Below, one piece after another: positions 1 to 63,000 of a stretch of DNA of 64,000 nucleotides; position 1 is the stretch's first letter, and each line of letters begins with the position of its first letter. Below the pieces are notes generated by a model. The model was not told the origin of the DNA and did not search any database. It worked only from the letters and a program-made list of their open reading frames with translations. The position numbers were made by a program, and so were the translations under genes. This DNA comes from Trichoplax sp. H2. Its lineage: Eukaryota. The stretch spans positions 62,001-126,000 of the forward strand of contig NOWV01000012.1 of the NCBI GenBank assembly GCA_003344405.1, written 5' to 3'.

Positions 1-3000
1 TAGTTTTGTAGGAAAATCGAAACGTGGACGTGATCACACTAATAATGCATCCAATCATAATCGTGTCGACCGTGATCTATGGAAATCAATTCAATTAGCT
101 ATGACTGATTCACAAAAATTTATTGATGCTCTATGGAATATACAGTGGGAAGAAGGTTTAAGTCCTGACAAGTTGGCCATTATGGAAAATTACTTAGGCA
201 AAAAATCACCTACTAACTTAGCACAAACAAATAATCAATTAACGGGACTAAGCATTACTGAAGAAATGAATCAAAATCACCACCATCATCACCCCATTAC
301 ATCAAATTTACTGGCATCGGGTAGCACATTTTCTCCACGTCGATTATCAAGCTCTACATCAGTAAGTTTTCAAACAGGAACACAACAAACAGGTGCTGTA
401 CCACCTCCTAATATTACTATTGCAGCTGCTAAATATTCATCGGAAGATGCTGCTATCTTAGTTGCATATATTATGGCATTAGTTGAATATACATATCAGT
501 ATTCACCTGTACGTGAGAAAATTGAGCGATTACAAGAATTATTGATTGAAAAAGACGAAGATGAAAGGCGTGCTGCGGAAGAAGAGGATGAAGTTGAACA
601 AGAGGAAGAGCAACGAGAAGAGATACAAATTGAAGATGAATTGTCTATCGATGATTACGACCGTATTGAAGAAGAAGCACACCAGTTGCAGATTGAATAT
701 GACCGCGCAGCTGTCGAAAAGCATATTTTACAAAAGGAATACGATATTAATACACAACGATTGCAAGCAGCTATGGAAGCCATCAATAGTCTTGAAACAC
801 AAACAAAGTTATGGCAAGATCTAGTCGATGAGAATACATCATTAGATTTACTACTAGCTAATTGTGTTTGTGCTAGTGCATTTTTAGCCTATTTAGGACC
901 GCTCGGTGCCGATGCACGATCAAATTGCGCTGCTGAGTTTATGCGAGCGTGTATGAGGAATAAATTACCAGTAGCTAAAAAAGCGATATTTACGGATGTT
1001 ACCCTAGCTGAATTTGTATTAGGCCAAGCTAATTTAAGGCGTATTGAAGTAAGTGAAAGGCTTCCTAAAGATATTTTATCGCAAGAAAACTTCTGCATCT
1101 TCAAATACCAAGTTTATTGTAATTCATGGATATTGTTATGTGATCCACAACGTATCGCATCCACATATGTCGCTGCTAATGTTGACGACATTACTATAGT
1201 TCGCTATAAAGAATTACGTAATCAACTAGATACATGTTTAAATGATGGTAAGGAAATACTAATTACTGACGTAGACACCAAGAGTATACTTGAAGATAAA
1301 CGCTTTTCGATACTATTGCGCCATGCTGATCTATTTGATAAAGAGCGTGAAACATTTAAAATGATGATTGGTGATCATGAAGTTGAATGTAATCCACAAT
1401 TTAGAATGACATTATCAACGTCTTGTCTGCCTATGAATGTACCAGATGAGTTGGCATCTCAATTAAGTGTAATTGAATTATCACATTCAACCCAAGGTCT
1501 CGAGGAGTTATTATTGGATTTCTTTATGCAAAAAGAGAAAACGCGCATTGATGAAGATAGCACACAAATCGCTGAAGAAATGATCGCTATCTATAATCGT
1601 TTGGAAACGATTGAGCAAAATATGCTAGAATTATTATCATGCAATAATAAATTACTCCACGATCTGACGATGACTAAAAAATTAACCTCATTAAAGAAAG
1701 CTTACGATGAAGCTATTGAAAATCAAGCTAGAGTCAAAGTTAACGAAGATAACATCATTAATACACGGCAGCATTATCGACCTGTAGCGAAACGCGGTGC
1801 AGTCCTATTTAATGTCTCCAAGCAAATGGCATTAGTAAATCCAATGTATCAGATATCATTAGATCAATTTTTGAACATGTATTCAACATCGATATTGCAT
1901 TCAGATAGAACTGTTGTTAAAGCAGTCGTTGATCGTCTAACACAATTAGTCTTCTTTTCAATCGCGCGTGGCTATTTCGAAATTGATCAATTTTTATATG
2001 CATTGCATTTAGCAATTGAAGTCGAAGGGTCGGAAGGACGTGTTGGCAATCTAGAAAGAGAATATCTTATATCACCGACTTTAGCTAATCAACTTATGAT
2101 GGCTCAAGGTAAACCAGCGGTCTCTGATTTGCCACCAAGTAAACATATGGGTAAAAAACCATTTGAATGGATGTCTGATGATCAATATCAGAATTTATTA
2201 ACATTGGCTTCATATTATGATTGGTTTACTGATTATTTTGAACGCATGACACGTGATGGTCGCGAAACTCAATGGCGTGCATTATGTGAACATTTAACGC
2301 CTGAAAATGCTGCATTACCTGATATTATCGAAGATCGCTTAAAACCAATGCAAAAATTATTAATATTACGCGCAATACGCCCTGATCGGCTATTGCAAAC
2401 TACCGCTGCGTTTGTTGTATCAGTTTTAGGTAAACGCTATGTCGGTGAGGTTGCATGTGATTTGACAACGTCGTACAAGCAAGGCAATAATCGCCAACCA
2501 ATGCTACTGGTATTTTCCTCGGAAGCTGAAACTGCTGAACGCTTAGTTTATGATTTTTCTGTCAAACGCGGTATACCGTTAGTTAATTATAATATGTGCG
2601 ACTCAATAGCTGAAGAAAGTCGCATTAATAAAGCTGTTCAACGTGGTATGCTCAACGGCCAATGGGTAATGTTACATAATGCTCATTATGCACCCCATTT
2701 ATTAAATACGCTAAATACAATCTTATCGGATACGAAACAAATTGATCCATCATTTAGGTTATGGATATCATCAAAACCAAATACGATATTATCACATCAG
2801 TTATTACAGTCATCGATTAAATTAGTTGTTGAACCACCTAAGCGCATGAGAGAATCAATATTAAGCTGCTTAAATTGGATCGAACCGGATACATTCAAAA
2901 CAAGTCAGCGCTCAGAGTGGATACCGTTATTGCATAATCTGTGCTTACTGCATAGTTCATTGCGCCTACGTACAAGATACAAGAATCGTGGTTGGAATGC

Positions 3001-5229
3001 TCCATATGACTTAGAATGGAGTAATTCAGAATTTTGGCAAGCTATTGAATTCTTTCGACGTGAATTTGCTAATATTGGTGTATTAGAAAGTAGCGGCGGT
3101 GCAACTGGTGTAAAAAATATAACTTGGACTGGTTTACGCACCATGTTATCAGAAGTTATCTACGGCAATATTATATTCGATAAATTCGATCAAGCAACGC
3201 TAAACGCTATTGTTGAAAAATGGATTAATTCAGGTGCAATTAAACGTGATTCTGAGCCTATGAAGGTAAAATATCGCGCACCTGCTATTATTTTTAGTCC
3301 TAATGTCCGAATGTCAGCTATAGCTCAAGCGATGGAAAATGTAAATCATTCAATATTAGATGTGCCTGAAGCATGTGGACTACATTCATCATCTGAAGTA
3401 GCGCTGGATGAAGGACCTTATCTATTTTATATGCTAAGTAAAATTATACATGATATGCCAGATATTGGAAATCGTAAATGGAACCAGGATCAACAAGTTG
3501 CTACCTCGGATAAAACAATTACTGTTAATCAAGCTTTAGCCATACCTCACAATACTAATGCCCAGCCATTACATACTGCGTATTCTGATCTAGATATAAT
3601 AATATCATCGACTTTTATTCCTGGCCGTCGAAGTCGTTATGTTGACATACATGAAATTGCTATTAATCTACTAAGTAAGTTACCAAAAGGCTGGACACGA
3701 GAGTTCATTCATGAAAGAATTAAAAAGAAGAAAGGATCTATTCATTCGCCATTTAATCAATTCGTATTATCTGAGGTTGAATTAATGAATAAGTTAATTC
3801 AACAGATTCGATTAACTTTAACAAGCCTTAAAGAAGCTACACAACATGACTTACTGGGTGACCATACTAATGATGATGCATTACGAGCTGCAAGCGATCT
3901 ATATTACTTGAGAATACCTGAAGATTGGTGTAAATTGGGTGGACCCTCAGCACCTCCGCATCATTGGAATTTAGGTTATTGGATCGATGATTTTAATAAA
4001 CGTTTTCAACATTTAGACAGAATGCTGTTACAGGTAAGAAATAGCTATTCTGAAATTGTCAGGCACACCTAGTCATTCCTCGTACTAAACTTTAAAACAA
4101 AAATAGTTACAATTTCTACTTAAACTCGTATACTATAACCTACGTAGGATTCTCTCGAGTAGTACAGCTATCCCGCTGGCTTCCTAGGATATATGTTTAA
4201 TATTTACTTGATAGATTATCTCAAAGTAATTTAAACCATGCTAATTATTTCCCATTCCCATTCTGCACTATTCTTGTTATAAAATAATTTTAAATATTTT
4301 ACTAGCAAGTTCAAACTAGTATGAAAGGCTTATAAAATATAATGTATTTATTTTCTATATGAGTACATAAATTATCCTTCTTAATATCTTTCTGGAAATA
4401 AAATATCAATATTTTTTATTATTTCTTGCTAGACTCGAGATAAAATTCCCGCGTATTGGCTCGGTGCTCTATTTCGACCCCAAAGTCTACTTGCTATCAT
4501 CAAACAGGCATGTATTTGATATCATAAAGTGCTAGTAAGCAATACCAGATCTTCAAATGATATGCATATTGACTAGAAAGAATATTATAATATTACTATA
4601 ATATATTCAGCGTTTAATATGAATAACGAGTATGGTAAACTACTCTGTATACGAGCACGTATTTGCTATCTACTTATTGATTATCTTGACTAAATATCAT
4701 TAATATCGTATCGTTGGACCATTGCAGGATACAATTCGCGCACATTATAAGCATGGCATAGCAGAAGAGTACGTCTTACAAATTGAATTAACTGCCAGAG
4801 ATAAAGATCATGTAAGTAAAAATATTTAAAAATCAGAAAATTATATATAACGAAAAACGATAAATGTTATAATTGATTAAATTTGAATTTTTTTAACTTT
4901 TATAGCTAAGAGATGCGCCTAATGAAGGCATGTTTGTCTATGGAATCTACGTTTGGGGAAGTTCTTGGGAAAAGACTGCCGGTGAACTACAAGATGCAGC
5001 CCCTAAATCAAATCCATCATCGCTTCCAGTCATTCATATCACTGCAGTACCAATATCAGATAAACCATGGATAACCGATCCTAGCTCATATCCATCAGTT
5101 TATCAATGTCCATGTTATTGTTCCCGTATGAATCGAGTGGAACCATTATTTTGCTTAGATATCAAAAACGATAGTGGCGGATCGCGCTGGGCACTTAGAG
5201 GACTGTATGCAACATTACGTCCATTTTAA
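1..5229 (+). CDS. Divergent dynein heavy chain, 3' part (stalk/MTBD, AAA5, AAA6, C-terminal domain); 5'-partial. Exons <1-4033, 4433-4507, 4728-4811, 4906-5229
   Basis: The frame of ORF 101-4072 is open back to base 2. Dynein-like motifs: AFLAYLGP, WILLCDPQ (AAA5), IGDHEVECNPQFRM, GLEELLL, YRPVAKRGAVLF, NPMYQISLDQF, RAIRPDR, GQWVMLHNAH, FRLWISS, EPPK, GWNAPY. Spliced exons add PAYWLGALFRPQSLL, PNEGMFVYG, LPVIH, YQCPCY and WALRG. All three introns are phase 0; the middle one is GC-AG. Confidence 0.9.
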
Positions 5230-7533
5230 TCTTATTTTTGATATGCTGATGTTTTTTATTGTGTCAGATACGAATTTTAATTTCTCTAAAATTAGTTCAT
5301 ATATAGTTAGTACAAAAATATTACAAAGCTTTCTTTCATTATCATCTTCATGTATGAATCGAAAAGTATCTATTTTTACATATATAAATTTGCACAATTT
5401 ATTATGACGATACTTTCAGACAGGAGAAGACATTAACGTCGTTGCTTGATTTTTCTTCATTTAATATATCATATATCAAGTCTGTTAATGTTGCAAATAT
5501 CTTGTGCCGTAGAGTTACTTTGAAATAGTAGCTTGTAAAATTTTTATTTAGCATTGTTTAATCACTTCTATACATGAAATAGCGCAAATATACCAGTCAG
5601 TATATTAAATCTACTTTACGCGTGTCTTAAATAAAGTAGGAATAATTGTCATATCGGATATGACATATTGTTCTATATTGTAATATTTCAACATAATTAT
5701 ATCGATATATATCTTCCTGTACAGTATCTATAGCAATAATTATTTTAAACTTTTATGACCTTCATTAAATGTGTGATTGTTGTTAATTATTTCTTGATTT
5801 TAGTTGTATTTTGAGTATGAATATGCTATCTACGCTTGTATATTAATAAATAATTTTTAATTCTACCGAATAAACGATACTAAATCTACTCCACTTGATA
5901 ATCAACGATATTAAATATCGTATGCAAATTAACAATAGTAAATTCTTGTTACAAAATTAATATCAAATCATTCAAATATGTCCGAAAAGTTAAATAGTAT
6001 GTCAACATTGAAATGAAGCTAGAAGAACTAGGAGCAATTTGTTATAAATATTATTAGCGATTTTTGAGTACTGAATATATTGTGGATAAACATTAATATA
6101 TTAACGATTTTATAGTAAGAATTCTTAACTAGCCCATGATTGATAAGCTAGTTGTTTCATTTGTATTCAACAAATGAGTGTTAGATACAGTGTAGTAAAA
6201 ATAACTTTCAAATATCCCCAGGGCTGCTTCAGTACTGATGAAATTTAATGTAAATAAATCTGTACTCTAAAAAAGCTCTGAAATTGATTTCAAAAATAGT
6301 ATTACCTAAGCTATAGTAGCAGCTAATAAAGTATTGTATGCGAATAGTAACAATAATCTATCAAATTAGCTAACGACTGCTACGTATTGGCTTACTGGCA
6401 ATGGTAATATTATTGGTATTGTGATGTAGTAATTATCAGTCATTGAGTAAAATAGAAAGCATCAGGCTATCTATCAGCTAATTAATAAATAGCTAAATGT
6501 AAAACTAGCCATTTTAAGTTTATTACTTTATCTATCGTGATATAATCAAAACTAGGATTTTTAACACATTTACTGGCAACAATGTAATTTTAAAGTATCA
6601 GCAACATTTCATGCTCCACAAGTGATTAAATGTAATTAATATGAATGCAGTTATTAAGATTTCATTAATAGTTAATTAAAGTTTTATTTTATCATGATTG
6701 CAATCACAATATTTAGTAGAAAGCCATTCTATCATAAATTTTTAATAATTCTATCCGGTGAAAAATGAAAATCAGATATAATATGACATGTTCAAACTGA
6801 AATAATCAGCATCAACTAAATTATTGTAAATATTACCTTAATATGATATTATGTGTTATTGGATAACTGCAGCCTGCAAATGCTTTTTGTAACATACAGT
6901 TCCTAAATTGCGAGCTTACGTGTAATACTATTATATGTATATACCCAAGTAATTAATATATAGAATTCCATGAGAGTAAATGAATATTGAAATTATGATA
7001 GTAAATACGTTACTTCGGAGTTGACAAGTTTACCATTAATCTAAAAAATTTTCATAATATAGATTTATTCATTTTGCTTATTAGAACTCTGATGAATTGG
7101 CACATAGTCCTAAGCGTAGTTCGTGTAATAAATAAACATCATCAATGCTAGTATTACTTTTTTGGGTTATCCTGTTGTAAATTATGAGTGATTATACAAA
7201 TACGATAAAAGTGTAGAATGAGACAAGATTAAAATTGAATTACGCTACTGTGTATCTGAACTGCAATATCAGCTACAATCCGCATAAAATTCTATCGAAG
7301 TATATAAAATATTCAACTTAAGATACCAAATATTGCCCGTGATCACTCGATAAACAAGTTAAAAGTGTTCTAATGTGTGATTTATGTGATGGAAGTCTGG
7401 CTAAAGATTTGTAATTCGGAGTGAATACTCAGAGTTAAAACTGTGATAGAAAAGAAATCAAAGCTGGTGAAGAAAGGTATCAAGAACTCATTAGTAGGAT
7501 TTAATGAGAGATAGCAATCATAACTATACGTGT

Positions 7534-9252
7534 TTAATAGTGAAATCCGCCACGTTTAACAAATTCATCCTCACGTAATCGTCCACCGCGGCCAAACAAA
7601 ATAAAATGCAATCCCATTAGTATTCCAGCAACTAAGCCAATGCCATATTTAATCTTACCCTCAGCACAATCCAAACCTAGTTGAGATGGTGGTATTAAGT
7701 GTCGTGGCAACTCAGCAGGTAAATCGCAACCATCCAATTTTAATTTAATTAAATACAATGCCAGAGCAAATTCTTCATCATCCAAGAGATTGTCACCATC
7801 ATGATCAGCCAACACCCATATCTTACCCAAGACGCTATTAGGCAGTTTAGATTTCATCATTTCATTTTTAGCATCATCTGATGATATCCTGCCTTCAATC
7901 GGATTTAAACTATAAAATATTTTATCATATTTGGATTTGTCATAACGTACTGCCCAAAATGGTGAATTAGCACCGATATCCACGCCACTTATGGCTAATG
8001 TAGAGAATGGCCCTTCCATTCCTAAGCCAAAGGCACCGCCACGTATGGCTGGTGTTAAAGAGCTGGCTTGTAAAGCCATATCTTTCAAAATTGGTATCTC
8101 ACAGAGTAACATTCGATCAACAATTTCGATTAACTTTGGCTTCAAAGTTTGAAATTTAGAGAAATCAGCTGTGCGCAAATATTTCTGAAAAACTTCAATA
8201 GGTGGAAAATCACCACGCGGTATTCTATATTCTTCCTCAACATGGAAATAAATATCAGATAGATTAAAGATTAAATTATCTTTTCGAGCTTGTTTACGAA
8301 AGATAGATGGCATCTCTTTTTTCAAGTAAGCAATTAAATGAGCATGACAACGTACTAAACGCGATCTTTTAATGACATAATCTAGCTTTTCCATAGCAAG
8401 ATCACGTGGTAAATTTCTTAAATCTTCAAGCAAATCTTGCTTTTCAGCTTCAAGTAATTGTCGACTCTCTTCAGTGGATAATCGACTAAATGGCTCATCC
8501 CAAAATGAGCCAATATAAACTCGAGGAACAAAGCGCGACGGTATAATTTTACCCAGGTAGAACATTAACGCACCGTAAACACGAAATAATTGTTGATAAT
8601 CGATTAAATCGGATTTATTCAAGACAATGCGGACTTTATGGATATTTTTGGTTAACAAATCCAAGATAGCTTTCATTTCATCGCCAACCTCCAATTTTTG
8701 AGCGTCAAATAGTAAGACAATACGATCAGCATGTTCCGCAAACCAGTCGATAACACGTGGAAAATCATAGCCGCGTTTAACATTGGACATATCGCTTAAG
8801 ATACCAGGTGAATCAATGATTGTTAAATTTTCCACCACTGAAGATTGGATTTCAATACATGTTAACTCATCCAATAGGTTATTACCGAATTTACCTAATG
8901 CGCGATAATCTTTGCTTGGGTCGGATACTAAAGCATGACCAGGCAACAATTTGTCATTTTCACCATACGATATAGTGCAAAAGTTATCGGTTGATGGTTC
9001 AGGACTGACCTTCATACCAGGATAGCCACGACTTAACAAATACTTGATAAATGTAGTTTTTCCCGTACTATATTCCCCAACTAACAAGATAGTGGGTTTG
9101 ATATTAAAATCTTTGTCACCCATGGGTGGTAAATCGAAATTATCAAAGTTGTAATATTCCTCCAAAGGCAAGACTTTATTCTTGTAAACTTTTTGCAACT
9201 CATCCATGACACGTTGTAGTGCCTCAACTTCTCTAGTTTCGTTTAGACTCAT
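7534..9252 (-). CDS. EHD: EH-domain-containing dynamin-like ATPase (EHD family), intronless core
   Basis: First ATG is at 9252; the track start at 9300 is TTG. P-loop GEYSTGKTT, PEPSTD, IIDSPGILS, RGYDF, LLFDAQKL, VLNKSD, RVYGALM, RVYIGSFWD, GPF linker, and EH domain KSKLPNSVLGKIWVLADHDGDNLLDDEEFALALYLI..LPAELPRHLIPPS. Confidence 0.95.
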   Translation of the reverse strand: MSLNETREVEALQRVMDELQKVYKNKVLPLEEYYNFDNFDLPPMGDKDFNIKPTILLVGEYSTGKTTFIKYLLSRGYPGMKVSPEPSTDNFCTISYGENDKLLPGHALVSDPSKDYRALGKFGNNLLDELTCIEIQSSVVENLTIIDSPGILSDMSNVKRGYDFPRVIDWFAEHADRIVLLFDAQKLEVGDEMKAILDLLTKNIHKVRIVLNKSDLIDYQQLFRVYGALMFYLGKIIPSRFVPRVYIGSFWDEPFSRLSTEESRQLLEAEKQDLLEDLRNLPRDLAMEKLDYVIKRSRLVRCHAHLIAYLKKEMPSIFRKQARKDNLIFNLSDIYFHVEEEYRIPRGDFPPIEVFQKYLRTADFSKFQTLKPKLIEIVDRMLLCEIPILKDMALQASSLTPAIRGGAFGLGMEGPFSTLAISGVDIGANSPFWAVRYDKSKYDKIFYSLNPIEGRISSDDAKNEMMKSKLPNSVLGKIWVLADHDGDNLLDDEEFALALYLIKLKLDGCDLPAELPRHLIPPSQLGLDCAEGKIKYGIGLVAGILMGLHFILFGRGGRLREDEFVKRGGFHY

Positions 9253-9564
9253 CTTGATATCGATTAGAGCAGTAGCAATCCAATGATAAAAACTATACAA
9301 AGATCCAATAATAAAATTGCCTGAATCGTTGATTGATTTTATTAATGTTTTCTTTAGTATGATACGATATAAAGTCCTTTATACTTTTACGGTATCTATT
9401 TCTAAACTGAATAAGGCAGGCTATCGGAAAGTGGAATGAATTTCTTCTGTACTTAGACCAATTAGTGGAATTGAAAGCAACTTAGCTGCGTCCAAGTATT
9501 CAAGTTTCCTTCAAAAAAATAAATTAAGGATTAGCGCATATAGAGAAAGAGTAATAGATAGAAA

Positions 9565-9648
9565 GATAGATGAGTAGTTGGATAGAATAATCAAAAATTA
9601 ATGACAGATAGATAGATGGGTAGTTAGATAGAATAATCCAAAATTAAT
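9565..9648. repeat. Two-copy 46-bp-period repeat inside a purine-rich GATA/TAGA tract upstream of EHD
   Basis: gatagatgRgtagttRgatagaataatcMaaaattaat at 9565 and 9611. Confidence 0.8.
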
Positions 9649-11412
9649 TAGAGATATAGACAACTAGAGAGGTAGGTAAAGAGATTAGTAGAACTCAGCA
9701 TAGAGATCGTTTAATAGATAAAGAAATAGGTAGACTGTTGGATATATGTTTTAACTGAATTACGCCTGAGGATATTTAGCTAATTTAAGCTAAACTAAAA
9801 TTGCTGTAAATCAAAGTTATTGCAATACTTTCGTTTGGTTCCTACAATAACGACGATATTCCCCGCCAATTAAAGTAGCAATGATTCATTCTTAACTGAA
9901 GTTCTTCAAAGATTACCTTTATCAAAAAATGGCTTAGCTATGTACTATATATGTATACTGATTATTTATGGATGCTTCCAAGATTACAGCCCTTGAACAA
10001 CTATTATTTACTTTTAAATATTTAGTTACTTACTCATAGTATTGGAGCACGTCCCTCCTAGAAATTGCTGCTAGCCTGAAAAGGTTAAAACGACAGCAAC
10101 GACTGTTAACTTTTCCCTTTAGCTAAGATGAATAACCTTTAGCGTCTCTGGCCTACATCAATGTATTAGCATTCACTGCGTCATCATCTAATCATGATTA
10201 GAATAGAAATAGACCATATGTTGTAACATAGCATATGGTTACTAGATTGAAAATCACCAAGCCAATGTCTTATCATTGGATATCAATAATTATATACATA
10301 TTCAGCGTGCTTAATACTTAATCTTTGGGCGTCGTCAAAGTGATGACTAACAGTTAACTAACCAATAAAGCAAAAGTCATGTACTTAAAATTGCCATAAG
10401 TAAGCTATTTAACGAATCAATTTAGTTAAACAGTCTATCAAGGCTTTATATGACTTTGAACAATTAGAACCAAATGATTAATTATTACGTTATAACTACT
10501 GTAATAAAATCGATCTAAGTCGAGCCAATCTATAAAATGTAAATTTCCTCTTTGGAATTGAAAAGACCAATTTTTTCCCTATAAAGCCTCAGATAAACTA
10601 TGCATATAATCGGTTATCACTTTGCTTTGAAAGTAATCTACAATTTAAAATATAAAATAAGGTTCTAGCAATCTGATTCTATTTAGATGTAATATGATTG
10701 AAACGCTTCTAACTGATACTATAATGAGTAACTTTCCGTTACGTGATTAAATCAGTATTCTCGTTGACTAGAATAAGTCATTGCTTCGCTTCTACGCGTA
10801 GACTGTGCTGGTATAACATCATTAATATTTTTGCCTACATTTTATATACACATCATATTAAATATCAGATTCCGAAAGTGTTACGTGAAACAATTGTTAT
10901 GAATTGGTATAAACATATGCTTTCGTTTACCAGTGACGCTATCATCTATATGCAACCGTATTGTTCGATTCTGCTAGATCCCAGAACGATTGCTTGATGA
11001 AATGAACATTCAATATGAATATAAAAATATTAATAATATCATACTTAAATAACATTACCGGTTCATTTTGTTATAAGATCCATACTTATTTCTTACAGTC
11101 TCTTACAATGATAATTTTCAATTCATAGTAATTTTTGTATAATGAAATCAGGCGGCATTAGAATATCTTCCTATTAGTAGCAAAATTAACGATAGTCAAT
11201 ATGAAGAGCAGTATGTCTAGAAAATTTATTACTCTCGATTATCAATTTATAGTAATAGTACGCGTATGGACTATTAAATTATGGTAATTATAGGCAGATT
11301 AGCACGATCTTGATACGAATCATATAACCATTAAAGATGAAGCTCAAGAATCGATAAACGATAATATTTTAAGTAATATCTAAGTATGTTTGCGTAATCA
11401 ATCTTGCCATTT

Positions 11413-16200: not shown

Positions 16201-19200
16201 AGACTAGAAGATTAACCAGAAATGATTGAAGATAGATTCAAATTCAACAACGATACCTAAATGTCGCAATAACTGAAAACGTACCATTATTCTTCGATTG
16301 CCATATTGCTGCTTTATGAATACGCTTTACGGTATCGAAAGGTAATGACGCTGTTATGGTACATTTATAGGACAAATACTGCATTGTAAATATAAAATTA
16401 GGTAATTGATAAGATAGCAGATGAATTTACTATTATTAATTGTGCTACCTTGCACATAAATCTGTATAAATGAAATAAAATACCTTAAATGTTCCCTCTA
16501 ATACTTGAAATCGTTGATCTGATTGCTGACGATTACTATCGGTGGAAGCATCAGAGATATTTTTTCGTTCTCGTCGTATTAAGAAAGAGTAGGCATGCTG
16601 TAGATTTGAACCAAGTCGAGCAAATTGCCTAATTTTCAATCATACAAAATTCAACTTTGAGCTTTGGTAATTGAATAAATTGTTAATAGAAGTGCATTTT
16701 TACACGTTAACCCGTTACCTGTGAGCTAGTAACATATCAGATTTATTCTTTATCTTTTCATGATCTTTAACACGCTGGCTATTATCGGTGGGAGAAACAA
16801 GTTTTGCATGTTTCTCTGTAGATCGTCTAAAATATAACCATAAAAATTTCTTTCTCTAATATCAAAGTTTGATCTATCTTTGTAAAACAACGCTGTTCTA
16901 TGGTCATACCTGCGAGTTTTTGTTACGTCTAACTTATTCGTCATCTTTTGATCGTTGTGAATATAGTGGTTATTAGAAGAAATACATCCTGATGACTTCG
17001 CCACCTTAAATTTATCCAGATGAGATAGACGATATGATGATTGTAATTCCTTATCGTCGTTTTCCTTAGTATGGTCAGTACTGAGACATGATGCGGATGC
17101 TAATGATCCAGCCTCTTTTAATTTAATAAGCTTATCTTCCATTTGCTCCTGAGCAATTGTATCAGAGGGGAATACTATAACTGGACAAGCACGATTACTT
17201 AAATAAGGTGAAGGCTCCACTGATTTCCTTGTTAATGGTTTTTCTAAGGATAAATTTTGGCTGCAACTAAGTATACACGCAGCAATCTTGTTTTGGTCAC
17301 TATCATTTATATTAGGAGAAGATTGTAATAAATCCATTCTAGCTGGATTCACTTCTTCACTTTTAATTAGCATATACTCCATATGCTGGTATTCGGATAT
17401 TGTTGAACTTTTCTTATCTTGACGGACAGGTGGTCGAGGTAGAAGAACTGGTGGTCTTTTTCTTGCCTTTCTTTCTTTTGAAACTTCCTTTCCATCGTTA
17501 GCTGTAGATGTATCTTTTTTGTCTTGGAGAACTGGCCTACGAGGAGTAGGTATTGGTGGCTTTCCTTTTTTAAATTTGTCTGATAATTTCTTTGTACACT
17601 GCTGACTTGTTGAAGGTTTGACTGTATTAACATTTACATAACGAGCTTGCATAGATAGTCTGCTTTCCATAGATTTATTCGAAATTGCCCTATCTCTCGC
17701 TTGTGTACCCGTATCCTCGGCCTCTGCTGTAACAATTTTAATTGTCTTTCGATTAGATTTCAATAGTTCTAAGCTATTTTTACGTTCATTATATCTCACA
17801 AAACTCCTGCTCACGAATCATTATTAACTTACTACAAGCATCTCCTTTCCTATCATGATCAGCAATTGTAAGTAATAAGGAATCGCTACCCTTCTTACCT
17901 ATAACAACCAGAAAGCAAAGTAACTTTATATGATATGTAATTTTAAACTTTCACAATAATTAATCATTTATTAAGATACCGATCAGCGATAAGCCAACAA
18001 CTACAGTATCTTTACTAAGGCGTTTTGATTAATTTTATACTTATTAATTGCATATATCATTACATAATGATATAGTGATCACCCTAGAAAATATTTATCA
18101 GCTATAGAAAAATTATTTAGTAAGACTGGTGTCTTACCTATTACATCAGGGTAGATATTGGAAGACGGTATGCTTTGTGATATTTCTCTTGCTAAAGATA
18201 GAGCTGTATTCTGGGTATTTTGCTCTTTAAGGGAATCTATCATACCCGTAAATTAATATCTCTTACTAGAATTAAATATAGTAATTAAAAGCAATTTTAA
18301 GATTAATCAATCTTACATGAATTGATATCGTCGATATTCCACTTTTGACCGCTTGCAATAGCTTCAATAGGATTGCTTTCACTGCTGCTATGATTCACTG
18401 ACACGGTAGATTGAAGGGATTGTGCTGTTTCTGAGGAGTTGCCCATGCCACCATGCCAATCCTCTTCCGCAGGGATTATGTGTAAATTATGGGGATGAGC
18501 GGGTAAGATCGAGGTCTCCATTGGGTGTTTGCACTCTTTCATTATACTTGTATTCCTTGAAGAGCGAGATTTATTGGAAATAGCAGCAGCTCTACTCCTG
18601 GAAACGTGTATGCTGGGATGACATGGTTTCGTCAAAGGCCATATATTAATTTCTTGTGATACATCTTCGACGGAAGATTGACCTAAAGGAACATTATCTA
18701 CGTTATGCCTATAAGCACACAATTTTGGTGAACGTGGAGGTACAAGTGGTCTGTTTGCAGTTTTTGTTGATTTCTTAACTGCATCTTCCAAATGTTGCTG
18801 ATCTGATAAGGCTAAATCCACATTGCCATAAGATGGATGTGATAATGGTAAACACGAAAGTACTGGCGGCCTGTTTCTTGCTCCGCTCGGCTTCTCAACT
18901 ACGTTCCCTAGCCATCGCTGATCTAATGAAGACACTATATTCCTTTCCCGTAGTATGCTGTTCGTCAAAGCTTGATTTGACGAAGCTACTCCTCTATTCC
19001 TTTGAATAGGATGTAACATCGACGAACATGTAGGTATTGATGGCTTATTTTTTGTTTTATTCCGTTTAATTTCTATCTGTTGGCGAGCTGGAGAATGCAA
19101 AGTATCCATTTCCAGTAAAGTATTATTAGGGATACAAGATTGCTCCGATAAAGGTGCTCTAGCATTAGTTGGAGTCGGAAGTGTTTTCGGTGAACTTGGA

Positions 19201-22200
19201 GATATTGATGGCCTTTTTCTTCTGTCACGCAATTTTTTAGCTGAATCTTGCGTCTGCGGCGAATTTTTCTGACTTTCCGTCATAATACCTAGCGTTGCGG
19301 AAGACTCTGGCTTATTCAAGCCGTAGTCGTAAAACTTTAACGGACGAGGTGGTTTTAGAAGCAATTCTTGCGATATTTTATACTTTTTAGTAGTGATACT
19401 GGAGGATCGATCTGCTAGTCGCGATGTTTCCATCTTGAAATGGTCTGGTAAATTTGTTATGTTAGATTGCTCATTTGCATTATTCGACGAGAGATTGTCT
19501 TGAATCGTCGAAGCTACGTTAGCTCGATCTCTTTGGTTAGGCATCGTTGTTATCTTCGATTGCTTGTTAATATTTGATGAAATATCATCTTTAATCGTCG
19601 ATACTATATGAGAACGATTGCTATAAGAAGATGGCGTTGAGCTAACAACTCCTACTTGTCTTGGTTTACTCTCTTCAGCAGTATCAGTGATACTACCTAG
19701 CGCAGGACTGGTCCTGTTATAACTATTATCTCCATAATCGTCACAACTGATTTGAGTAGGCGATGAGCAGACTACTTTTATTTGATTTGATTTATCCGAA
19801 AGAATGCCTGATATACTTCTGCGAACCTCATGCTTAGAGGAATGCGACTGAAGAGTTAATTTTGATTCCAAAGATTTATTTAATACACTGTTAACTTGAC
19901 GATCAGTAGGAATAGGAGGTAATGGCCTATTTTTCATTCTACACTTAATTCTTTCATCCTTTATCCGATTATTCTCAGCATCAGGTGCTATTTCATAAAA
20001 TCTTTCTTCAATTATAGAGATTGTTGAGTCCTTTTGCATAACTGCATCAACTTCTTCCATTGAATCGATTTCAGGATATTCGTGATATTTCTAAAATAAA
20101 GGGACAAAAATTGACAATTTCTTTTATAAATTATTCCTTTTACCAGCAACACAATCAAAACAACAGCACAATAATTTAAAAAGTTGAAGATGAATTTGCC
20201 AAAATTCCTATCAACGAATACACTAGGTTTACAAGGATAACAGTCGTGATCGGAGATCTATAAAAACTGAAATATCTTCAGATAGTTAAAGTGACTTTTA
20301 CAGTCAATCAACACAACTTATCAACCGTAAATTTAATGCAATACTTTAAAATGGCGATGAATTAACAATTGCAATATGCAGACTCTTGATATTGCTGTGA
20401 CTGAATCAAATATGTATGAGTATAGACTAATTCATCCTTAACCGATTGTTATGATGAATTATTATCACCCGCTGCAAAATTATAACATTGCCATGACTAT
20501 TAGATAGATGAAGATATCTTATATCTTTAAAGATTGTGGTAATGAACCGTCATCTGTAGTCGAATCATGATATTGCAAAGTCGAAATAGGAAAATTGGCC
20601 AGAGAATATACATTTGCACATACAACATATTTATGACGTATATCTTGTACTGATATTAATTTAACATGTTCGCATCAAAATATACCTATATCTATAGTAG
20701 TGTACCTTATATAGCATGGAAATCGTTCTGTGAGAGTATAGAGAATGTCAAACAAAAATTTATCTTACAGATCCGTGGATTATTAACTTATAGCTGTTTT
20801 ATCAGTATGAAGTATACAAGTTACGAGCTAATAGTAAACCTGCTGGCTACCTTAGTATTACTATGTTATTACTGAAATATAGCAAATACCCAAAGGGTAA
20901 CTCTATAACATGCAGCCAGTATCATTCTAAGTAGCCCTTCGCAGCTAGCTTAGTTTAGCTCGTGAGCATCTCAAAATGGGTCACATATAACTTATCTCAG
21001 TAACATAGTAACTATAGTATTTTAGCATCATAGCAATTTATTCACTCATTAATGAGATCTAGCCGACCTATGATTTACGAATTAGCAAATAAACGGGCCT
21101 ATCCGGTTAATAGTACCAGACACCATTCGGACCACCAGCGATATCCTAACCCTAACTTGACTACTTTAGAGTGATGATATATTAATTCAAATTGCCAAAT
21201 GAATTGTCAGCTTATTATAACGTTTTTTTCAGTATGAATTAACTTTAATAATAAAATCGGGGCCCCATTTTAGCGCTGCGTGATAGCGGTATTTATATTC
21301 GGTATTCACGGTATTGGTTAATGCTATCTAATATACTTACATTATACTGTGCGCATTGAAGGTTGCGATAATACGCATCGTAAAATAGAAAATTTGTAAA
21401 TATTATTTTTAGTTTGCCATGAATTACTAAATTGACATTAGTATGAAATACTATAATCATTGCACCAGACCTTTACTGCATACTTGCGTTAGTAAGATCT
21501 CGCCTGTGGGCTATGTACGATAGTACAAAACGTACTGTGGTTATTATACAACTACAGAAACTACATCGAACGCTGAGCGTGAATATGACCAAAGCATTTA
21601 CGTACTAGTACAGTGTAAAGTTGTATTCTGTGCAAATATGTCATCAATGAGTGCACTCTATCAATCAATGTTATATTCTAATATTGCGTAAAATACTCGA
21701 TTATCCAAATTGATCTTAACAAGTTGTTGGTAAACAATATACATTTTATGTAGGAAACTATTTATCTCATCTAATTGATTCTAACAATCATTTACTTGAT
21801 CGTAACAATAATATTACCATAATTTTCCATTTCTCCATTAAATCTTTCATTAATTGTTTGGATAAGGATCGTTGAAATAATGAAGCCTAGCAAATAAGAA
21901 ATGTTAAAGCAAGCAATACTTCCATTGGCATGGACTTCTTATATTTATCTTATCAAACCTTTAACAACGATGTCGCTGATAGCCGTCTTTTGTAATTCCT
22001 TTGGAAGCAAGAATCAAGGAATGTATGGAAACATTGAGTCCTAATTTTATCATTCATTGAAAAGGTTAATCATCAATTAATACGAAATTTATATTTTCTT
22101 TACTTTTATAAATCATATATTACTATTGATCTTTTGTTAAACGAAAAAATCATTTTTAAATCTAATTATGCAACATCCTATTCAGGAAAAAATAAAAATT

Positions 22201-28200: not shown

Positions 28201-28843
28201 TTCTGATTAACTCAATGTTAACTAGAACTATTATGCAATTATTGTGCTGTATAACCCATTTCTACTATTACCTAATAGGTAGAACTAATTAGTTTTTAGA
28301 GTTTAGATAGCTGCACTAAATCATTGCACTTGAGAATAGATAAAGAACAAACTTACCGTAACACAAATCCAACAAGGATCCACCGCTACAGAATTCCATA
28401 CAAATGCCTAAAAATTCCTGACCCATTTGACCCTTAATGAAGCCATGCGCGAAATACTCAACAATATTTTTATGCGAGTTTGACCTTAAAATATCGACTT
28501 CTGCTGCAACATATTTCGTGTGATATCCTTGAAAATTTTACAAGAACTTATTAAATAATCTCAACCAATAATCGAAAAGATTAGCAAGCGTAATATACTG
28601 TTACATCCAAACAACAAGATTTGCGTTACTTGTTGGAAGCTTAATCATCTTCAGGGCAATATTCTTCTTTATAGCTGGTAATTCTACCTATTGTAAAGGT
28701 TACATACAGCAGCTAAAACGGATAGCTCTACAAGCAGAATATAGTAAATTTTTAATACTAACTTTATACACACAACCAAAGGCACCTTTTCCCAGAATTG
28801 ACAAGAATTTAATTGTCCATTGAGGATTATCTTGGTTTGACAT
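13243..28843 (-). CDS. MAP4K: GCK-I/MAP4K-type STE20 kinase with long linker and C-terminal CNH domain (~1600+ aa). Exons: 28843-28763, 28687-28630, 28527-28357, 25777-25722, 25616-25569, 25458-25416, 25339-25267, 22720-22669, 22469-22375, 22277-22212, 22040-21959, 21886-21818, 20090-18317, 18236-18138, 17898-17833, 17726-16910, 16826-16719, 16628-16484, 16378-16285, 16177-16116, 16024-15949, 15584-15473, 15369-15308, 14972-14866, 14720-14623, 14505-14417, 14237-14172, 13992-13900; tentative 13529-13459 and 13351-13243
   Basis: Phase-compatible exons give LGKGAFGCVYK, IALK, EVDIL..HKNIV, CMEFCSGGSLLDL, EEDVIAFVCREVLLGLEFLH, IIHRDIKTANIL, ADFGLS, WMAPE, DIWAVGITALEM and F.TFLDSCF. CNH-like segments: RIHKAAIW, FIILGTETGI, DPYDNQRCFLCAQLSDSILIMKY, EDYPFLCVGV, QFNNSTVLVC. 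The 3' end below 13900 is uncertain. Confidence 0.85.
21090..21259. repeat. Dispersed ~170-bp repeat, copy 1 (inside a MAP4K intron); possible non-autonomous mobile element
   Basis: Near-identical to 30690-30859 (taaacgggcctatccggtt...ataataaaatcg), with about three substitutions. Contains cctaaccctaac. Confidence 0.85.
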
Positions 28844-30669
28844 GCTTCCGACATTGAAATTCTATATAGGGCAAAATTTGCAAAACGATATGGAAACGAT
28901 TATTCTCGGTTTCCAGTCTGTAGAATTCCTGTAGTTCTATCAAATGGCAAAAGATCTTTTCCTGTAGTCGCTATTACTTACTTGTCAAATATTGTTTCCG
29001 CAATAAATGGGACATTACTTCTAAATTTGTCGCGCTAAATTCATCATGATAATGGCTATCCATAACTACTGGTACTATTTTATATAGCAGTATAATAGAG
29101 GTTATACTCTTATAATTTCTTAAAATGAAACATCTCAGATATGTAAATATCCACTTTTGGTAAAAAAGATTTAATACTTAATACAATTTCCTAATACGCA
29201 CTTACATACATTACCATGTGTTTTTATTTACTGTTAAGACCGAAGTATAAAGAACGCAATACATATCCCTACTCTAATTTAACGCCTTTATGGAATAACT
29301 TACATTAATGAGTTGTCCATACCAGGCATTATTTAATTAGGATCCAAAAGAATGTCTCATCCAGTAAAATAGCTCCCAGTTGGTGAATCTTATAAGTACA
29401 TTTACGCTATTGCATTTCTAAAAATGTCTTCAAAAGTACAGTAATACAGCTCTGCGCGAATACGGTAGAAAACAATATCTTTAATTCTTTCAATTAAGGT
29501 TAAACAAAAGCAAGAACTCTAATATGGAATACCTTGCAAATAGCCAAAACTTGATATATTCACCGTTATCCCGCTCAACCACCCTTGAAACGAGCAGCGC
29601 CGGGGGTATTTATACTACTGTTAGATGACTGCGATTATGGGTTCATTTCAATAGGTCAGTATAAGATTCTTACAGTATTTTTACCTTAAGATTTCATGTA
29701 AAACGAATAGCTCTAAGGTAGTAATTTCTACAGAGTACTGATTTTTAAAATAGTATTCGTTATATCGCTAAGGGTGACCACTGGGCCTTTGAATTTTGGT
29801 TTGATGTAATACTCTGATGAAAATTGAATAAACATAGAATCTTTATAGAGTTTTCTACACAGCCATTTTGATTGTTACATTTTCTTATAACGGTTGTTAT
29901 CGACAGAGCAAGTTTGCTTGCATACGCAAGCGATCCTTAGACACATTATAATGATTGGTATAGAATTGACCACAGTACGAAGGACATTGTACCGCACTGT
30001 AGATATCTTACAGTACCTGCTAATCTTAACTTGGTATGTCCATCACCGTACATTAGTTATCATAATGTGCTTTGGACCATTAACTAATCTTAATATAGCA
30101 TTTCATAGCATTTCATCCTTCAATGCATTATTGAAAAGTAGTATTCTAGAAGCATAGCTGTGAATATAGTAGTGCCTGGCTATTACCGGAATATATATTA
30201 TGTCGAATGGTAATACTATCTGCTGATTATTAACAAATGAGTACATTATCGTAAACCGTCAGCAAAGCGACGCGAGTTTGTACTAGTAATGATCAGTTTT
30301 GCGCTTCTCCAGATTTGAATAGTTAATGCGCTGTACATATATTTAAAAATGAACTAACTATAAAATATTAAATATTATTTGGCAGCGGCAATATCGTTAC
30401 TTACATTAATATAGACTGGAAATGATGGTGCATAGCTTATTGATCAATCATAATTAATTATCGACTTTGCTCGAATATTTTAACTTTATTATTGATATTT
30501 AGGCTTGCTATAACAATTTAGAGGTAATTCCGTAGTGGTTTAAAGTCGGTTCATGAAAAGTCCTCCGTTTGTATATTGCGGTCACTAGTAACTTAATGTT
30601 TTCTCTCTTACTGGGGCTATTAAGCTAGACGTACTAATGTGCGAATTCGACGCGTTAATTGATCCAAAC

Positions 30670-30689
30670 NNNNNNNNNNNNNNNNNNNN
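30670..30689. other. Assembly gap (20 N)
   Basis: Run of n characters. Confidence 1.
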
Positions 30690-30859
30690 TAAACGGGCCT
30701 ATCCGGTTAATAGTACCAGACACAAATCGGACCACCAGCGATATCCTCACCCTAACTTGACTACTTTAGAGTGATGATATATTAATTCAAATTGCCAAAT
30801 GAATTGTCAGCTTATTATAACGTTTTTTTCAGTATGAATTAACTTTAATAATAAAATCG
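30690..30859. mobile_element. Dispersed ~170-bp repeat, copy 2, truncated on the left by the gap; appears inserted relative to the empty site near 30409
   Basis: Matches 21090-21259. It is followed directly by atatagactgg..., whose other copy at 30409 is preceded by unrelated sequence. Confidence 0.55.
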
Positions 30860-60080: not shown

Positions 60081-63000
60081 GATTATCTTCCGTAATTACA
60101 AGTAGTATTAATTGCGAGAAGGAATTTCAATCTATCACCAAAAGTTGAGTTGAGCCCTGAGGATTCGACTAAAAATTTTAGTGCTAAAATTTCGATACAG
60201 ATTACACTCATACATTCATAACTAACTAAAATTACTAATAATTAGAATTGAAAAGCAGGGTCCAGATGACCCTGTGTTACAATCTATGACTTTATCTGTC
60301 ACTAGCTTCTAAACTTGTTATAGTACGATAAGGAGTGATTCTTCCAATCTAGCAGTTTCCACTTCAAACAGCGTTGTACATTAAGTAATTTACTGCTGAT
60401 TCAATATACGTATTTGCATAGATTAATAACTAAAATAATTATAATTATATTATAATCACGTATGCGCAGTGCACTACTAACTGCGGCAATATGATGGTGA
60501 TTATGATCTTTTTATGGACTAATCAAATAATGGCAATTATAGTACAATCGAAGTACAGTTCTGCAGACTGTAGTCTACAGTAATGGGTTGGCATGCATTA
60601 TACATATATTGTTGTACTATACCGTCATATCGCTGTATCTATGCCCTTAGGGCTTAGGTTCTAAATACATCCAAAAGAATGAATCAGTCAAGAGTATAAT
60701 TGCGACGTCGATTTGTAAGCAACGATGCGGGATAACTAGCGGTAAATAGGATAAGACAGGCGTGGACCTTAGCTACAAATCCCCAGAACTTTTGTAGTAA
60801 ATGCCCGACTAGCACAATTAAAAAGAATTGTTTAAAAAATTTGCTATTTGTTAACCTAACTGTCCGGTATACATCAGTGCAGTAATCTCAAGTGATGTCG
60901 GCAGAACCACTAAAATAATTAATTACTTTACAGTTTCTTATATATAGATACTTTTTCTTGCATAGGTCCTAGTGTTGACGGCCTAGCTTTTCTGTTCTAC
61001 TCTACTATTCTTGTAATAAGCAGTGCAATAGACGTAATAAATCCATTAATAGGGAAAAAAATCAATTAGTTCGTATTACTTATAAGTACGAAAAGATTTT
61101 GGAAAAATTTCTTTCCAGTGTAGTGCTACTAAATATAGAGAATGTAAATAAAAAATGATCTACGGTATCATTCTATTGTGAAGATTTATTATGAATTACA
61201 ATGATGTACCGTACACCTTTTCCGCCTTTGGAGTTATAATTTTTAATCCATATATCGATAGTAGCGTTAGACGATATTTTACGAGTACTATCTTAATAAA
61301 GTAGACAGACTAATTTTCTACCGTGATTGCAAATGAAAAAATTTTACCACGATGAATCAATTGCAGGCCACTATACAGTAAAGTAGATTCCAATTTGAGC
61401 CTTAATTGAAGTCGGATCATATCTGATATGGCTGGTATCACACAATGACATATTTCTTTCCATGTTCTTACTTATCCAATGGCGAAGAATAATCTGCTAT
61501 GAACTAGTGAAAATTCAGACTGCACGTTAATCCTGAAAATATACACTCCCTATCTCGTACTGAAAGTCACAATTCTAAACTAATTGCACCATTTATGATC
61601 TCCTTTTATTAATTATCGATACTAAATTATATTTATAGCATCTTGCACGAGGAAATGAATTTTCCTGACTGCATTCAATGAATCATGACGTCAGTATATA
61701 TTACACAGGGACGTTTATCAAGAAACCTTATAAGATTGTATATATACAAATGATACCATTGGATAAAAGCCATAATATATGTTAAGTATATGAATGATAT
61801 TATTTTATACAAGATTATGTACGCGTATTCATAAAATTATCGTATTTAGCGACTTGCATCATTATAGGCGAGATAAAGTCATGTTATTCTAGTAATATTT
61901 TGATCGTTAAATTAGTCGTTTGATAAACGATCGCGAAAGATTTTAAATGTAGATACTGTAGCACATCACTGACACTAAAGCTAATAATAAAGATCGCTAC
62001 TATAAATTCGTTTTGAACTATTGTAGATATTGAAGAAATAAGAAGTTGAAGAATCGCGATCAGATATTTCGTGAGATAATTTTATTATGTCTCCACCTAA
62101 CTTGCAGTCGAAATTAAATTGTTACAAACTTACAAATAATGACGAAGTGTCGCAAAATTTCAAATTAATTACCTTATAACCTTTTTATATTCGCTCTTAT
62201 TTTAATGAGAATAAACAGTTATTCTTATGAAGAATTACCTATGGAAATAACTCCCAACATGGAAAGGGAAGTACTCGTATAACACATTTAGACTAAAATA
62301 GAAATATTTTTCTATCTAATAACGTAGTCTATCCGCCACTAGAAATACGATCATTTCTCAAATAATGGTCTTAGAATATATACCTTTCACTAGTCCTGCA
62401 ATCTACTTTGCTACGGGCATATTCGATATTAGACATCGTAACGCTGTCAGCATATAGAAATATGCAAGAATTCACAGAAGTGTGGATGAAATCTTATACC
62501 AATAATCATTTAATCTGCCTCAATTATTAATAGCAAAAGTAATGTAAGGTATCAAGATATACGCCAGTCGCTAAATTATGCTATAATTTTCTAACTTTGA
62601 CCATTATCTATCATAACGTAGCATTAGGTGAGCATTACATAAAGAACAGTAGAACAAGAGAGAATACGTGTATGTTTAAAATTAAATTTATGCTAGAAAA
62701 ATGACTCATGCTACTATTATTGATATGAAATATCAACATTTTATAAATTAGTCACGCGAAATCGGCAAACTTGCTGTGTTACTAGGTCATTGCATGCTAT
62801 GTAGTCGTCTACGTACAGTGTGACATACAAACACGCTGCGCCTGCTTACCTGCCTGAGGTATGCATTTAATAAAGCAAATCTTAGTAACTTTGCATATGC
62901 CTGAAAGTACGAAGAGAGCATTTTATTTCAATTTATTTCTAAAAGGAAATAATGCAAATCCTCAATTCTAAAAGGTAGTATTGAAATACTTTTGAAATAA

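Follow-up and report, generated by a model that had tools for sequence, protein, structure and literature searches.

The DNA analysed here is a 64,000-nt stretch of Trichoplax sp. H2 (positions 62,001 to 126,000 of contig NOWV01000012.1, assembly GCA_003344405.1; hereafter the window), which carries on its minus strand a gene for an EHD-family ATPase whose reading frame runs on beyond the EH domain into a 49-residue tail with a hydrophobic segment. A stop-to-stop frame of 614 codons (9378..7534) contains an open reading frame (ORF) of 572 codons (Table 1), and its product has EHD_N, Dynamin_N, DUF5600 and a C-terminal EH domain in that order, the complete architecture of the EHD family. The exact 572-residue protein is already present in NCBI, UniRef and eukprot, so that public gene models already read through into the tail. 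No other EHD gene was found in the 64-kb window.

The catalytic and binding features of the family are retained. The invariant columns of a 42-sequence alignment (G59, G64, K65, T66, T67, D147, P149, G150, N212, K213, D215 and W479) are all present in the window protein, and so are the nucleotide-binding motifs (P-loop G..GKT, DxxG and NKxD), the GPF region and, in the EH domain, both the NPF-binding Trp (W479) and the calcium loop (D483/D485/D487). At the tip of the helical domain it has a basic patch, FRKQARKDN, where the consensus is FGKDSKKKE. The N-terminal MFSW segment, which 40 other aligned EHDs retain almost without exception, is missing from the window protein (P0002 in the alignment) and from a close relative, P0122; the M and W columns, at least 90% conserved, are empty in P0002 and hold unrelated residues of the upstream ORF in P0122.

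The C-terminal extension

Beyond the ...HLIPPS end of the EH domain the frame continues as QLGLDCAEGKIKYGIGLVAGILMGLHFILFGRGGRLREDEFVKRGGFHY. A linker of 13 residues leads from the EH domain to a 17-residue, Gly-rich hydrophobic segment with small residues in the spacing G..G...G...G (a small-xxx-small pattern), flanked by KIKY on its N side and GRGGRLRED on its C side, and 19 residues follow it to the C-terminus. The first-pass annotation of the window had described this frame past LIPPS, with its Gly-rich stretch (7644-7594) and basic flanks, and the description holds position by position.

Hydrophobicity was computed with the Kyte-Doolittle and Hessa scales. On the former, the hydrophobic segment of the window protein averages 2.2 (17 residues) and 1.88 (19 residues), and that of P0122 averages 1.91 and 1.62, while the hydrophobic moment of the segment is low (0.10-0.13; 0.13 in the window protein) alongside this high mean. 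Residues 1-523 reach a best 19-residue mean of only 1.07, so the protein has neither a signal sequence nor a second hydrophobic segment. The net charge of the C-terminal segment is +2, or +1 for P0122. With one hydrophobic segment near the C-terminus and a short charged segment after it, the tail, judged by its sequence, has the formal arrangement expected in a tail-anchored protein. Hydropathy (GRAVY) of the transmembrane (TM) segment and tail charge sort mammalian tail-anchored proteins among endoplasmic reticulum (ER), mitochondria and peroxisomes (Costello et al. 2017, PMC5450235); with a GRAVY of 1.6-2.2 and a charge of +2 or +1, the tail falls between the ER and mitochondrial regimes of that study, and a target organelle therefore cannot be called.

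AlphaFold2, run on the whole protein with a 42-row alignment, gave a mean predicted local distance difference test score (pLDDT) of 65.9 and predicted a helix at residues 538-552. An ESM Atlas look-up of the tail returned no feature match, and its structure matches were generic single helices with TM-scores of 0.50 or less.

Codon usage and divergence

To score codon usage, a log-ratio was fitted to the window's dynein exon and to the EHD body minus its tail, with four non-coding stretches as the contrast. Read in frame, the tail reaches 0.483 bits/codon; its two alternative frames give -0.331 and -0.92. Sixteen in-frame windows of 49 codons taken from the EHD body span 0.266-0.641 bits/codon, a range that includes the in-frame value of the tail, and that value is reached by none of 99 windows in the 3′ untranslated region (3′UTR; maximum -0.222 bits/codon). 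The G+C fraction of the tail, 0.408, exceeds that of the body (0.366) and that of the 3′UTR (0.289).

The 90%-identity cluster of the window protein has one other member, P0122 (590 residues, from a Logan contig of 4666 nt), which is 92% identical to it overall. Identity is 50/54 in the N-terminal part, 211/230 in the G domain, 112/116 in the helical domain, 33/36 in the linker region, 81/87 in the EH domain and 39/49 in the tail. The tail, whose conservation in orthologues the first-pass annotation had left to be checked, is retained in P0122 with the same frame, length and stop. Within it, the 13-residue linker is identical (13/13) and the C-terminal segment nearly so (17/19), and the hydrophobic core matches at 9/17 positions. 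The core changes from the window protein to P0122 (G>A, L>F, G>A, I>T, L>I, H>N, I>M and L>F) maintain both hydrophobicity and the small-xxx-small spacing. As a crude neutral control, the 18 codons of P0122 upstream of the shared ATG were compared, ungapped, with the 5′UTR of the window read in frame, and 7/18 match.

Among four sequencing runs (described below), 11 variants occur at 10 sites of the coding sequence; all are synonymous (10 at third positions and one TTA>CTA) and lie outside the tail. The 3′UTR has two more, at 7532 and 7391. A word search with region 500-572 against proteins of near length matched only the window protein itself (67 candidates), and one with region 490-572 against shorter proteins gave a single match among 24 candidates, P0293, a canonical EHD fragment without the tail. 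The tail has the look of real coding sequence, and it is expressed and conserved in one orthologue.

Transcript contigs across the tail

Logan contigs from four runs (X6, X1, X4 and X15) were placed on positions 3000-11000 of the window; X6 is recorded as RNA, and X1, X4 and X15 were guessed to be RNA. In each of the four a contig crosses 7441-7658 unspliced (X6, 6678-9507; X4, 6758-9466; X1, 6838-8736; X15, 7122-7796), and the contigs have no indels against the window sequence over the EHD gene. The contigs are taken to be RNA-derived because they skip introns: three joints in the plus-strand dynein gene (4031>4431, 4504>4725 and 4811>4906) are all found in X6, X1 and X4 and two of them in X15, and a joint 9507>10033 in X6 and X1 corresponds to a GT..AG intron in the 5′UTR of the EHD gene. 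Contigs derived from introns have a depth of about 3 in X4, against 109 for the spliced dynein contig, so the background of unspliced RNA or DNA is low in that run.

The first-pass annotation had suggested that the locus makes an anchored EHD from the unspliced message and a soluble one by splicing from a donor at 7658 to an acceptor at 7441, which opens a phase-compatible exon, 7440-7382. The motifs are present: a donor-like agg/GTAAGA begins at 7658, a pyrimidine tract with CAG ends at 7441, and a splice from 7659 to 7440 would preserve the phase and yield a 19-residue ending. The read-through form is what the contigs of all four runs contain, so that removal of 7658-7441 from all transcripts is not the case, and of the spliced form there is no trace: no 7659>7440 joint occurs in these contigs, though four other introns show within the same 8 kb. 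The proposed alternative exon scores -0.062 bits/codon and is not coding-like. Splice-like motifs are also frequent, GT(A/G)AG occurring four times inside the EHD coding sequence and GTAAG 129 times in the window (both strands), and the candidate motifs at 7658 and 7441 are no more than chance would give. A regulated splice switch thus has no support, and the dominant mRNA includes the tail and a 3′UTR of some 700-850 nt.

The coding sequence of the EHD mRNA is intron-free, yet its 5′UTR has at least two introns. One contig, X1 record 3, extends a further 750 nt or so upstream of 11060, toward the 3′ end of the minus-strand kinase gene that lies upstream, and could represent either a long multi-exon 5′UTR or a conjoined (read-through) transcript.

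Table 1. Features of the EHD locus and its neighbours, in window coordinates
Feature	Position	Strand	Residues	Basis or remark
Dynein heavy chain C-terminus	2..5850	+		Neighbour of the EHD gene
3′UTR of the EHD gene	6678..7533	-		Contigs end between 6678 and 6838; AATAAA/ATTAAA at 6746 and 6688
Hypothetical alternative terminal exon	7382..7440	-		Inside the 3′UTR; codon score -0.062; no joint onto 7440
Candidate intron of the first-pass annotation	7441..7658	-		Donor-like and acceptor-like motifs; no splicing seen
EHD single coding exon	7534..9252	-		ORF list and translation; ATG at 9252, TAA 7536..7534
Tail after the EH domain (49 residues)	7537..7683	-	524-572	Frame continues beyond ...HLIPPS
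Gly-rich hydrophobic segment, candidate membrane anchor (17 residues)	7594..7644	-	537-553	Small-xxx-small pattern G..G...G...G
EH domain (PF12763)	7681..7944	-	437-524	Pfam, E 1.2e-16
DUF5600 helical domain (PF18150)			285-389	Pfam, above curated cut-off
Dynamin_N G domain (PF00350)			55-213	Pfam, above curated cut-off
EHD_N (PF16880)			18-49	Pfam, above curated cut-off
5′UTR intron, confirmed, 525 nt, GT..AG	9509..10033	-		Joint 9507>10033 in X6 and X1
Second 5′UTR intron, inferred from one contig, 871 nt, GT..AG	10188..11058	-		Loose end of X1 record 3 at 10188 matches 11060-11089
Kinase-fragment gene with long Ser/Pro-rich exons	~11-29 kb	-		Next after the EHD gene

Comparison with EHD relatives

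A first homology search gave 3028 matches among 8000 scored candidates, and from the best 120 of these we examined the 119 other EHDs. They have 0-14 residues after the PPS/T motif, against 49 here, which agrees with the statement of the first-pass annotation that known EHDs end shortly after the EH domain. None of the 119 has a hydrophobic ending: their best 17-residue Kyte-Doolittle mean in the last 70 residues is at most 1.21, against 2.20 in the window protein and 1.91 in P0122. A search of a representative library gave 6420 matches at E 0.001 or better, of which the best 150 were examined. In 37 of these the alignment extends through the EH domain, and all 37 end without a hydrophobic stretch (best 15-residue mean at most 0.63). 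A hydrophobic 19-residue window occurs in 36 of the 150, near the C-terminus in 19 of these, and 18 of the 19 were scanned with Pfam (P0222 was left out). Seventeen of the 18 have Dynamin_N and DUF5600 without an EH domain; the remaining one, P0262, lacks DUF5600 and has its EH domain at the N-terminus.

EHD relatives that lack the EH domain and have a predicted C-terminal TM helix are thus common, and among the sequences sampled a complete EHD that includes the EH domain and ends in a hydrophobic tail was seen only here. As the window protein would if its tail is an anchor, these EH-less NTPases join an EHD-type G domain and DUF5600 to a C-terminal anchor. They differ in that their anchors are strongly hydrophobic (Kyte-Doolittle 2.1-3.2), whereas the window protein keeps its EH domain and has its anchor candidate after it; its sequence groups with the EH-bearing EHDs and not with the EH-less, TM-anchored family. 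Bacterial EHD homologues with two TM helices also exist (Schaffer et al. 2020, PMC7016017).

With the canonical EHDs (EHD1-4, RME-1 and Past1) the window protein shares the four-module architecture, P-loop, NKxD, GPF region, and the Trp and calcium loop of the EH domain; unlike them it lacks the MFSW segment and has the 49-residue hydrophobic tail, and its identity to animal EHDs is only 49-53%, against 63-77% among those EHDs themselves. These identities come from a subset of 58 sequences, with three rows that were odd or long and 61 rows of redundant mammal type removed. A second, very divergent Trichoplax EHD, P0125, is 46% identical to the window protein and ends eight residues beyond the alignment, without hydrophobicity. 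In a quick IQ-TREE analysis the window protein and P0122 group with P0125 at an approximate likelihood ratio (SH-aLRT) support of 94, below the 95 mark, and on long branches (1.19 and 2.01) that make long-branch attraction possible; the grouping faintly hints at an EHD duplication specific to placozoans.

Tail-anchored proteins such as ACBD5, GDAP1 and the FALDH isoforms (PMC5450235) resemble the window protein in lacking a signal peptide and in having one hydrophobic segment, at most 19 residues from the C-terminus, with a charged tail; the difference is that insertion of the window protein is putative. Atlastin and mitofusin are likewise dynamin-superfamily NTPases that are permanently fixed to a membrane, and the resemblance to them would be one of functional analogy only. 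Both belong to different G-domain subfamilies and have two-TM hairpins.

In the part of the literature that our searches covered, such a protein does not appear. A term search of a 2026 review of the EHD family (PMC13282721) found no tail-anchor, membrane anchor, placozoa or Trichoplax, and 'transmembrane' only for CFTR. Judging by titles and the starts of abstracts, a search for Trichoplax EHDs gave no account of the window protein, and a search for tail-anchored EHDs gave no anchored EHD among the matches listed. One Logan contig match, P0110, is mammalian EHD1 with a FLAG-type epitope added after KRRHE, that is, a laboratory construct from a public run.

Synteny and the lipophil module

The order of the dynein, EHD and kinase genes in the window is that of TrispH2_001821 (dynein axonemal heavy chain 5, DNAH5), TrispH2_001822 (EH domain containing 4) and TrispH2_001823 (MAP4K2). 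In the supplementary data to Najle et al. (2023, PMC10580291), orthogroup OG_7583 contains TrispH2_001822 together with TriadG25492, Hhon_g10653, Hhon_g10110 and HoiH23_PlH23_000317, and on this gene order the window gene most likely belongs to OG_7583 and is the orthologue of TriadG25492. The latter has a membership of 0.972 in module Tadh.brown, which is annotated lipophil and lists it among V-ATPase subunits and tetraspanins, and in the other three species its orthologues have values of 0.81-0.95 in lipophil-associated modules (PMC10580291). According to the same supplements both communities of lipophil modules show enrichment of the EHD_N domain, with 6 and 8 genes, and the placozoan EHD family is expanded and includes a tandem pair, with at least five orthogroups, four of which have a Trichoplax adhaerens member. 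TriadG56433, TriadG26061 and TriadG18691 are further placozoan EHD paralogues. A term search of that paper's main text met no mention of EHDs; lipophil cells are described there as cells of algal digestion with large lipophilic granules (PMC10580291). By synteny, then, the window gene would be expressed in lipophil cells.

Interpretation

The best explanation of the locus, which we hold to be slightly better than evenly balanced when its parts are taken jointly, is that the gene is a divergent EHD paralogue of the placozoan lineage and an orthologue of TriadG25492, and that its tail is always included and acts as a tail anchor. The single coding exon would always include the 49-residue extension, and the glycine-zipper-like hydrophobic segment is predicted most likely to insert post-translationally as a tail anchor. 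Such an anchor would fasten the ATPase permanently, by its EH-domain end, to an organelle membrane and replace reversible recruitment by lipid binding, and the paralogue may accordingly be attached to membranes constitutively.

In canonical EHDs the EH domains sit atop the G domains of a membrane-bound coat about 12 nm thick, and the C-terminal tail auto-inhibits (Melo et al. 2022, PMC9741607). The N-terminus of EHD2 sits in a G-domain pocket and switches into the membrane, and deletion of the N-terminal stretch of an EHD enhances membrane recruitment and oligomerisation (PMC9741607). In the window protein the short auto-inhibitory C-terminal tail is replaced by the 13-residue linker, hydrophobic helix and charged end. 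With the EH domain atop the coat and only 13 residues between it and the anchor, either the EH domain would be kept off its inhibitory site or the anchor would lie in a second, apposed membrane. The former arrangement, with the EH domain pulled from its inhibitory position, would give an always-primed, constitutively active and always membrane-bound scaffold. In the latter, the anchor would sit in a second membrane facing the coat, and an EHD with its helical-domain tips on one membrane, some 12 nm from its EH end, and its anchor in the other could act as an ATP-driven tether or remodeller between a lipophil granule and the plasma membrane or another granule, in the manner of atlastin or mitofusin; this bridging role is a speculative proposal that we consider unlikely. 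In lipophil cells the substrates would be the large acidic granule and its traffic.

That the tail anchors the EHD in a membrane has, in our estimate, roughly even chances, and anchoring is called no more than probable because the hydrophobicity is marginal for a membrane span. Several observations weigh against the explanation just given. The 19-residue means of 1.88 and 1.62 (window protein and P0122) lie around the customary 1.6 threshold and the core has only 17-19 residues; a simple Hessa-scale sum falls on the unfavourable side (+1.5 kcal/mol for the window protein and +2.3 kcal/mol for P0122); the segment includes four Gly and one His or Asn; and the TM helices of the EH-less relatives are stronger, with 19-residue means of 2.1-3.2. 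The AlphaFold2 pLDDT is below 50 over residues 526-572, with neither packing nor membrane insertion indicated. Of the four runs only X6 is on record as RNA, and the RNA evidence consists of assembled contigs, from which minor isoforms and local depth cannot be read. A single tail-bearing orthologue sequence, P0122, is at hand, and the link to TriadG25492 and the lipophil cell rests on gene order, not on sequence identity.

The main rival reading is a tail that is translated and under selection without spanning a membrane, as a helix in one leaflet or on the surface of a lipid granule, as a site of oligomer contacts through its small-xxx-small face, or as a regulatory element that folds back into the G-domain pocket used by MFSW. 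The marginal hydrophobicity and 17-residue core speak for such a role, as does the absence of MFSW from both P0002 and P0122, given that the EHD2 N-terminus fills that pocket (PMC9741607), and the better conservation of the flanks than of the core suggests specific protein contacts. A low moment with high mean hydrophobicity is, however, unlike a surface-seeking amphipathic helix, AlphaFold2 docked the tail nowhere with confidence, and the replacement of hydrophobic residues by hydrophobic residues is typical of lipid-facing segments; we regard a non-spanning tail as a credible but rather unlikely alternative. That the tail is instead a functionless, neutral read-through into a former 3′UTR after loss of an ancestral stop, or an annotation artefact, might be argued from its confinement to one narrow lineage in the word searches and from its faster evolution (80% identity, against 92-97% in the remaining protein). 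Yet P0122 retains frame, length and stop, the tail matches at 39/49 positions where the 5′UTR read in frame matches at 7/18, its codon usage equals that of the EHD body, and the RNA contigs confirm its sequence without indels, which makes this explanation very improbable.

The model of the first-pass annotation, in which splicing of 7658..7441 sets the ratio of anchored to soluble EHD, draws on motifs that resemble the confirmed introns of the window and on a join that is in phase, and since contigs drop rare variants, a minor isoform would be hidden from them. The 7659>7440 joint is nevertheless missing from all four runs, in a stretch where four other introns were seen; the alternative exon has its negative codon score within an AT-rich 3′UTR (G+C content 0.289, against 0.408 in the tail); GT(A/G)AG arises four times in the coding sequence by chance alone; and the P0122 protein also bears the unspliced tail. 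We therefore think it improbable, though a little less so than neutral read-through.

A membrane-anchored paralogue would matter because EHDs are regarded as soluble ATPases, with an activity that depends on how their recruitment is regulated and on the auto-inhibition exerted by EH domain and N-terminus. If anchored, it would be a natural experiment on the EHD cycle under constitutive recruitment, since its machine is complete, its N-terminal switch is missing and it would be fixed to the membrane at its EH end. If the tail does not span the membrane, the protein has simply a lineage-specific C-terminal extension. The paralogue would also add a marker and a candidate mechanism for the lipophil cell, the digestive secretory cell of placozoans, in whose gene module EHD paralogues and V-ATPase are enriched (PMC10580291).

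Other features of the window

The second dynein intron (4508-4727, plus strand) has no GT..AG placement within the ambiguity of its joint; the only consensus-like fit is GC..AG (cag/GCATGT ... TGCAG/g). Two long Ser/Pro/Asn-rich ORFs on the minus strand, of 355 and 595 codons (16750-17817 and 18303-20090), lie downstream of a minus-strand kinase fragment at 28316-28537, whose Pkinase match (E 8e-4) is below the Pfam cut-off; the ORFs and the fragment probably make up one MAP4K-like gene, TrispH2_001823. A run of N near 30660, read as XXXXXXX in the plus-strand ORF 30592..30774, marks an assembly gap.

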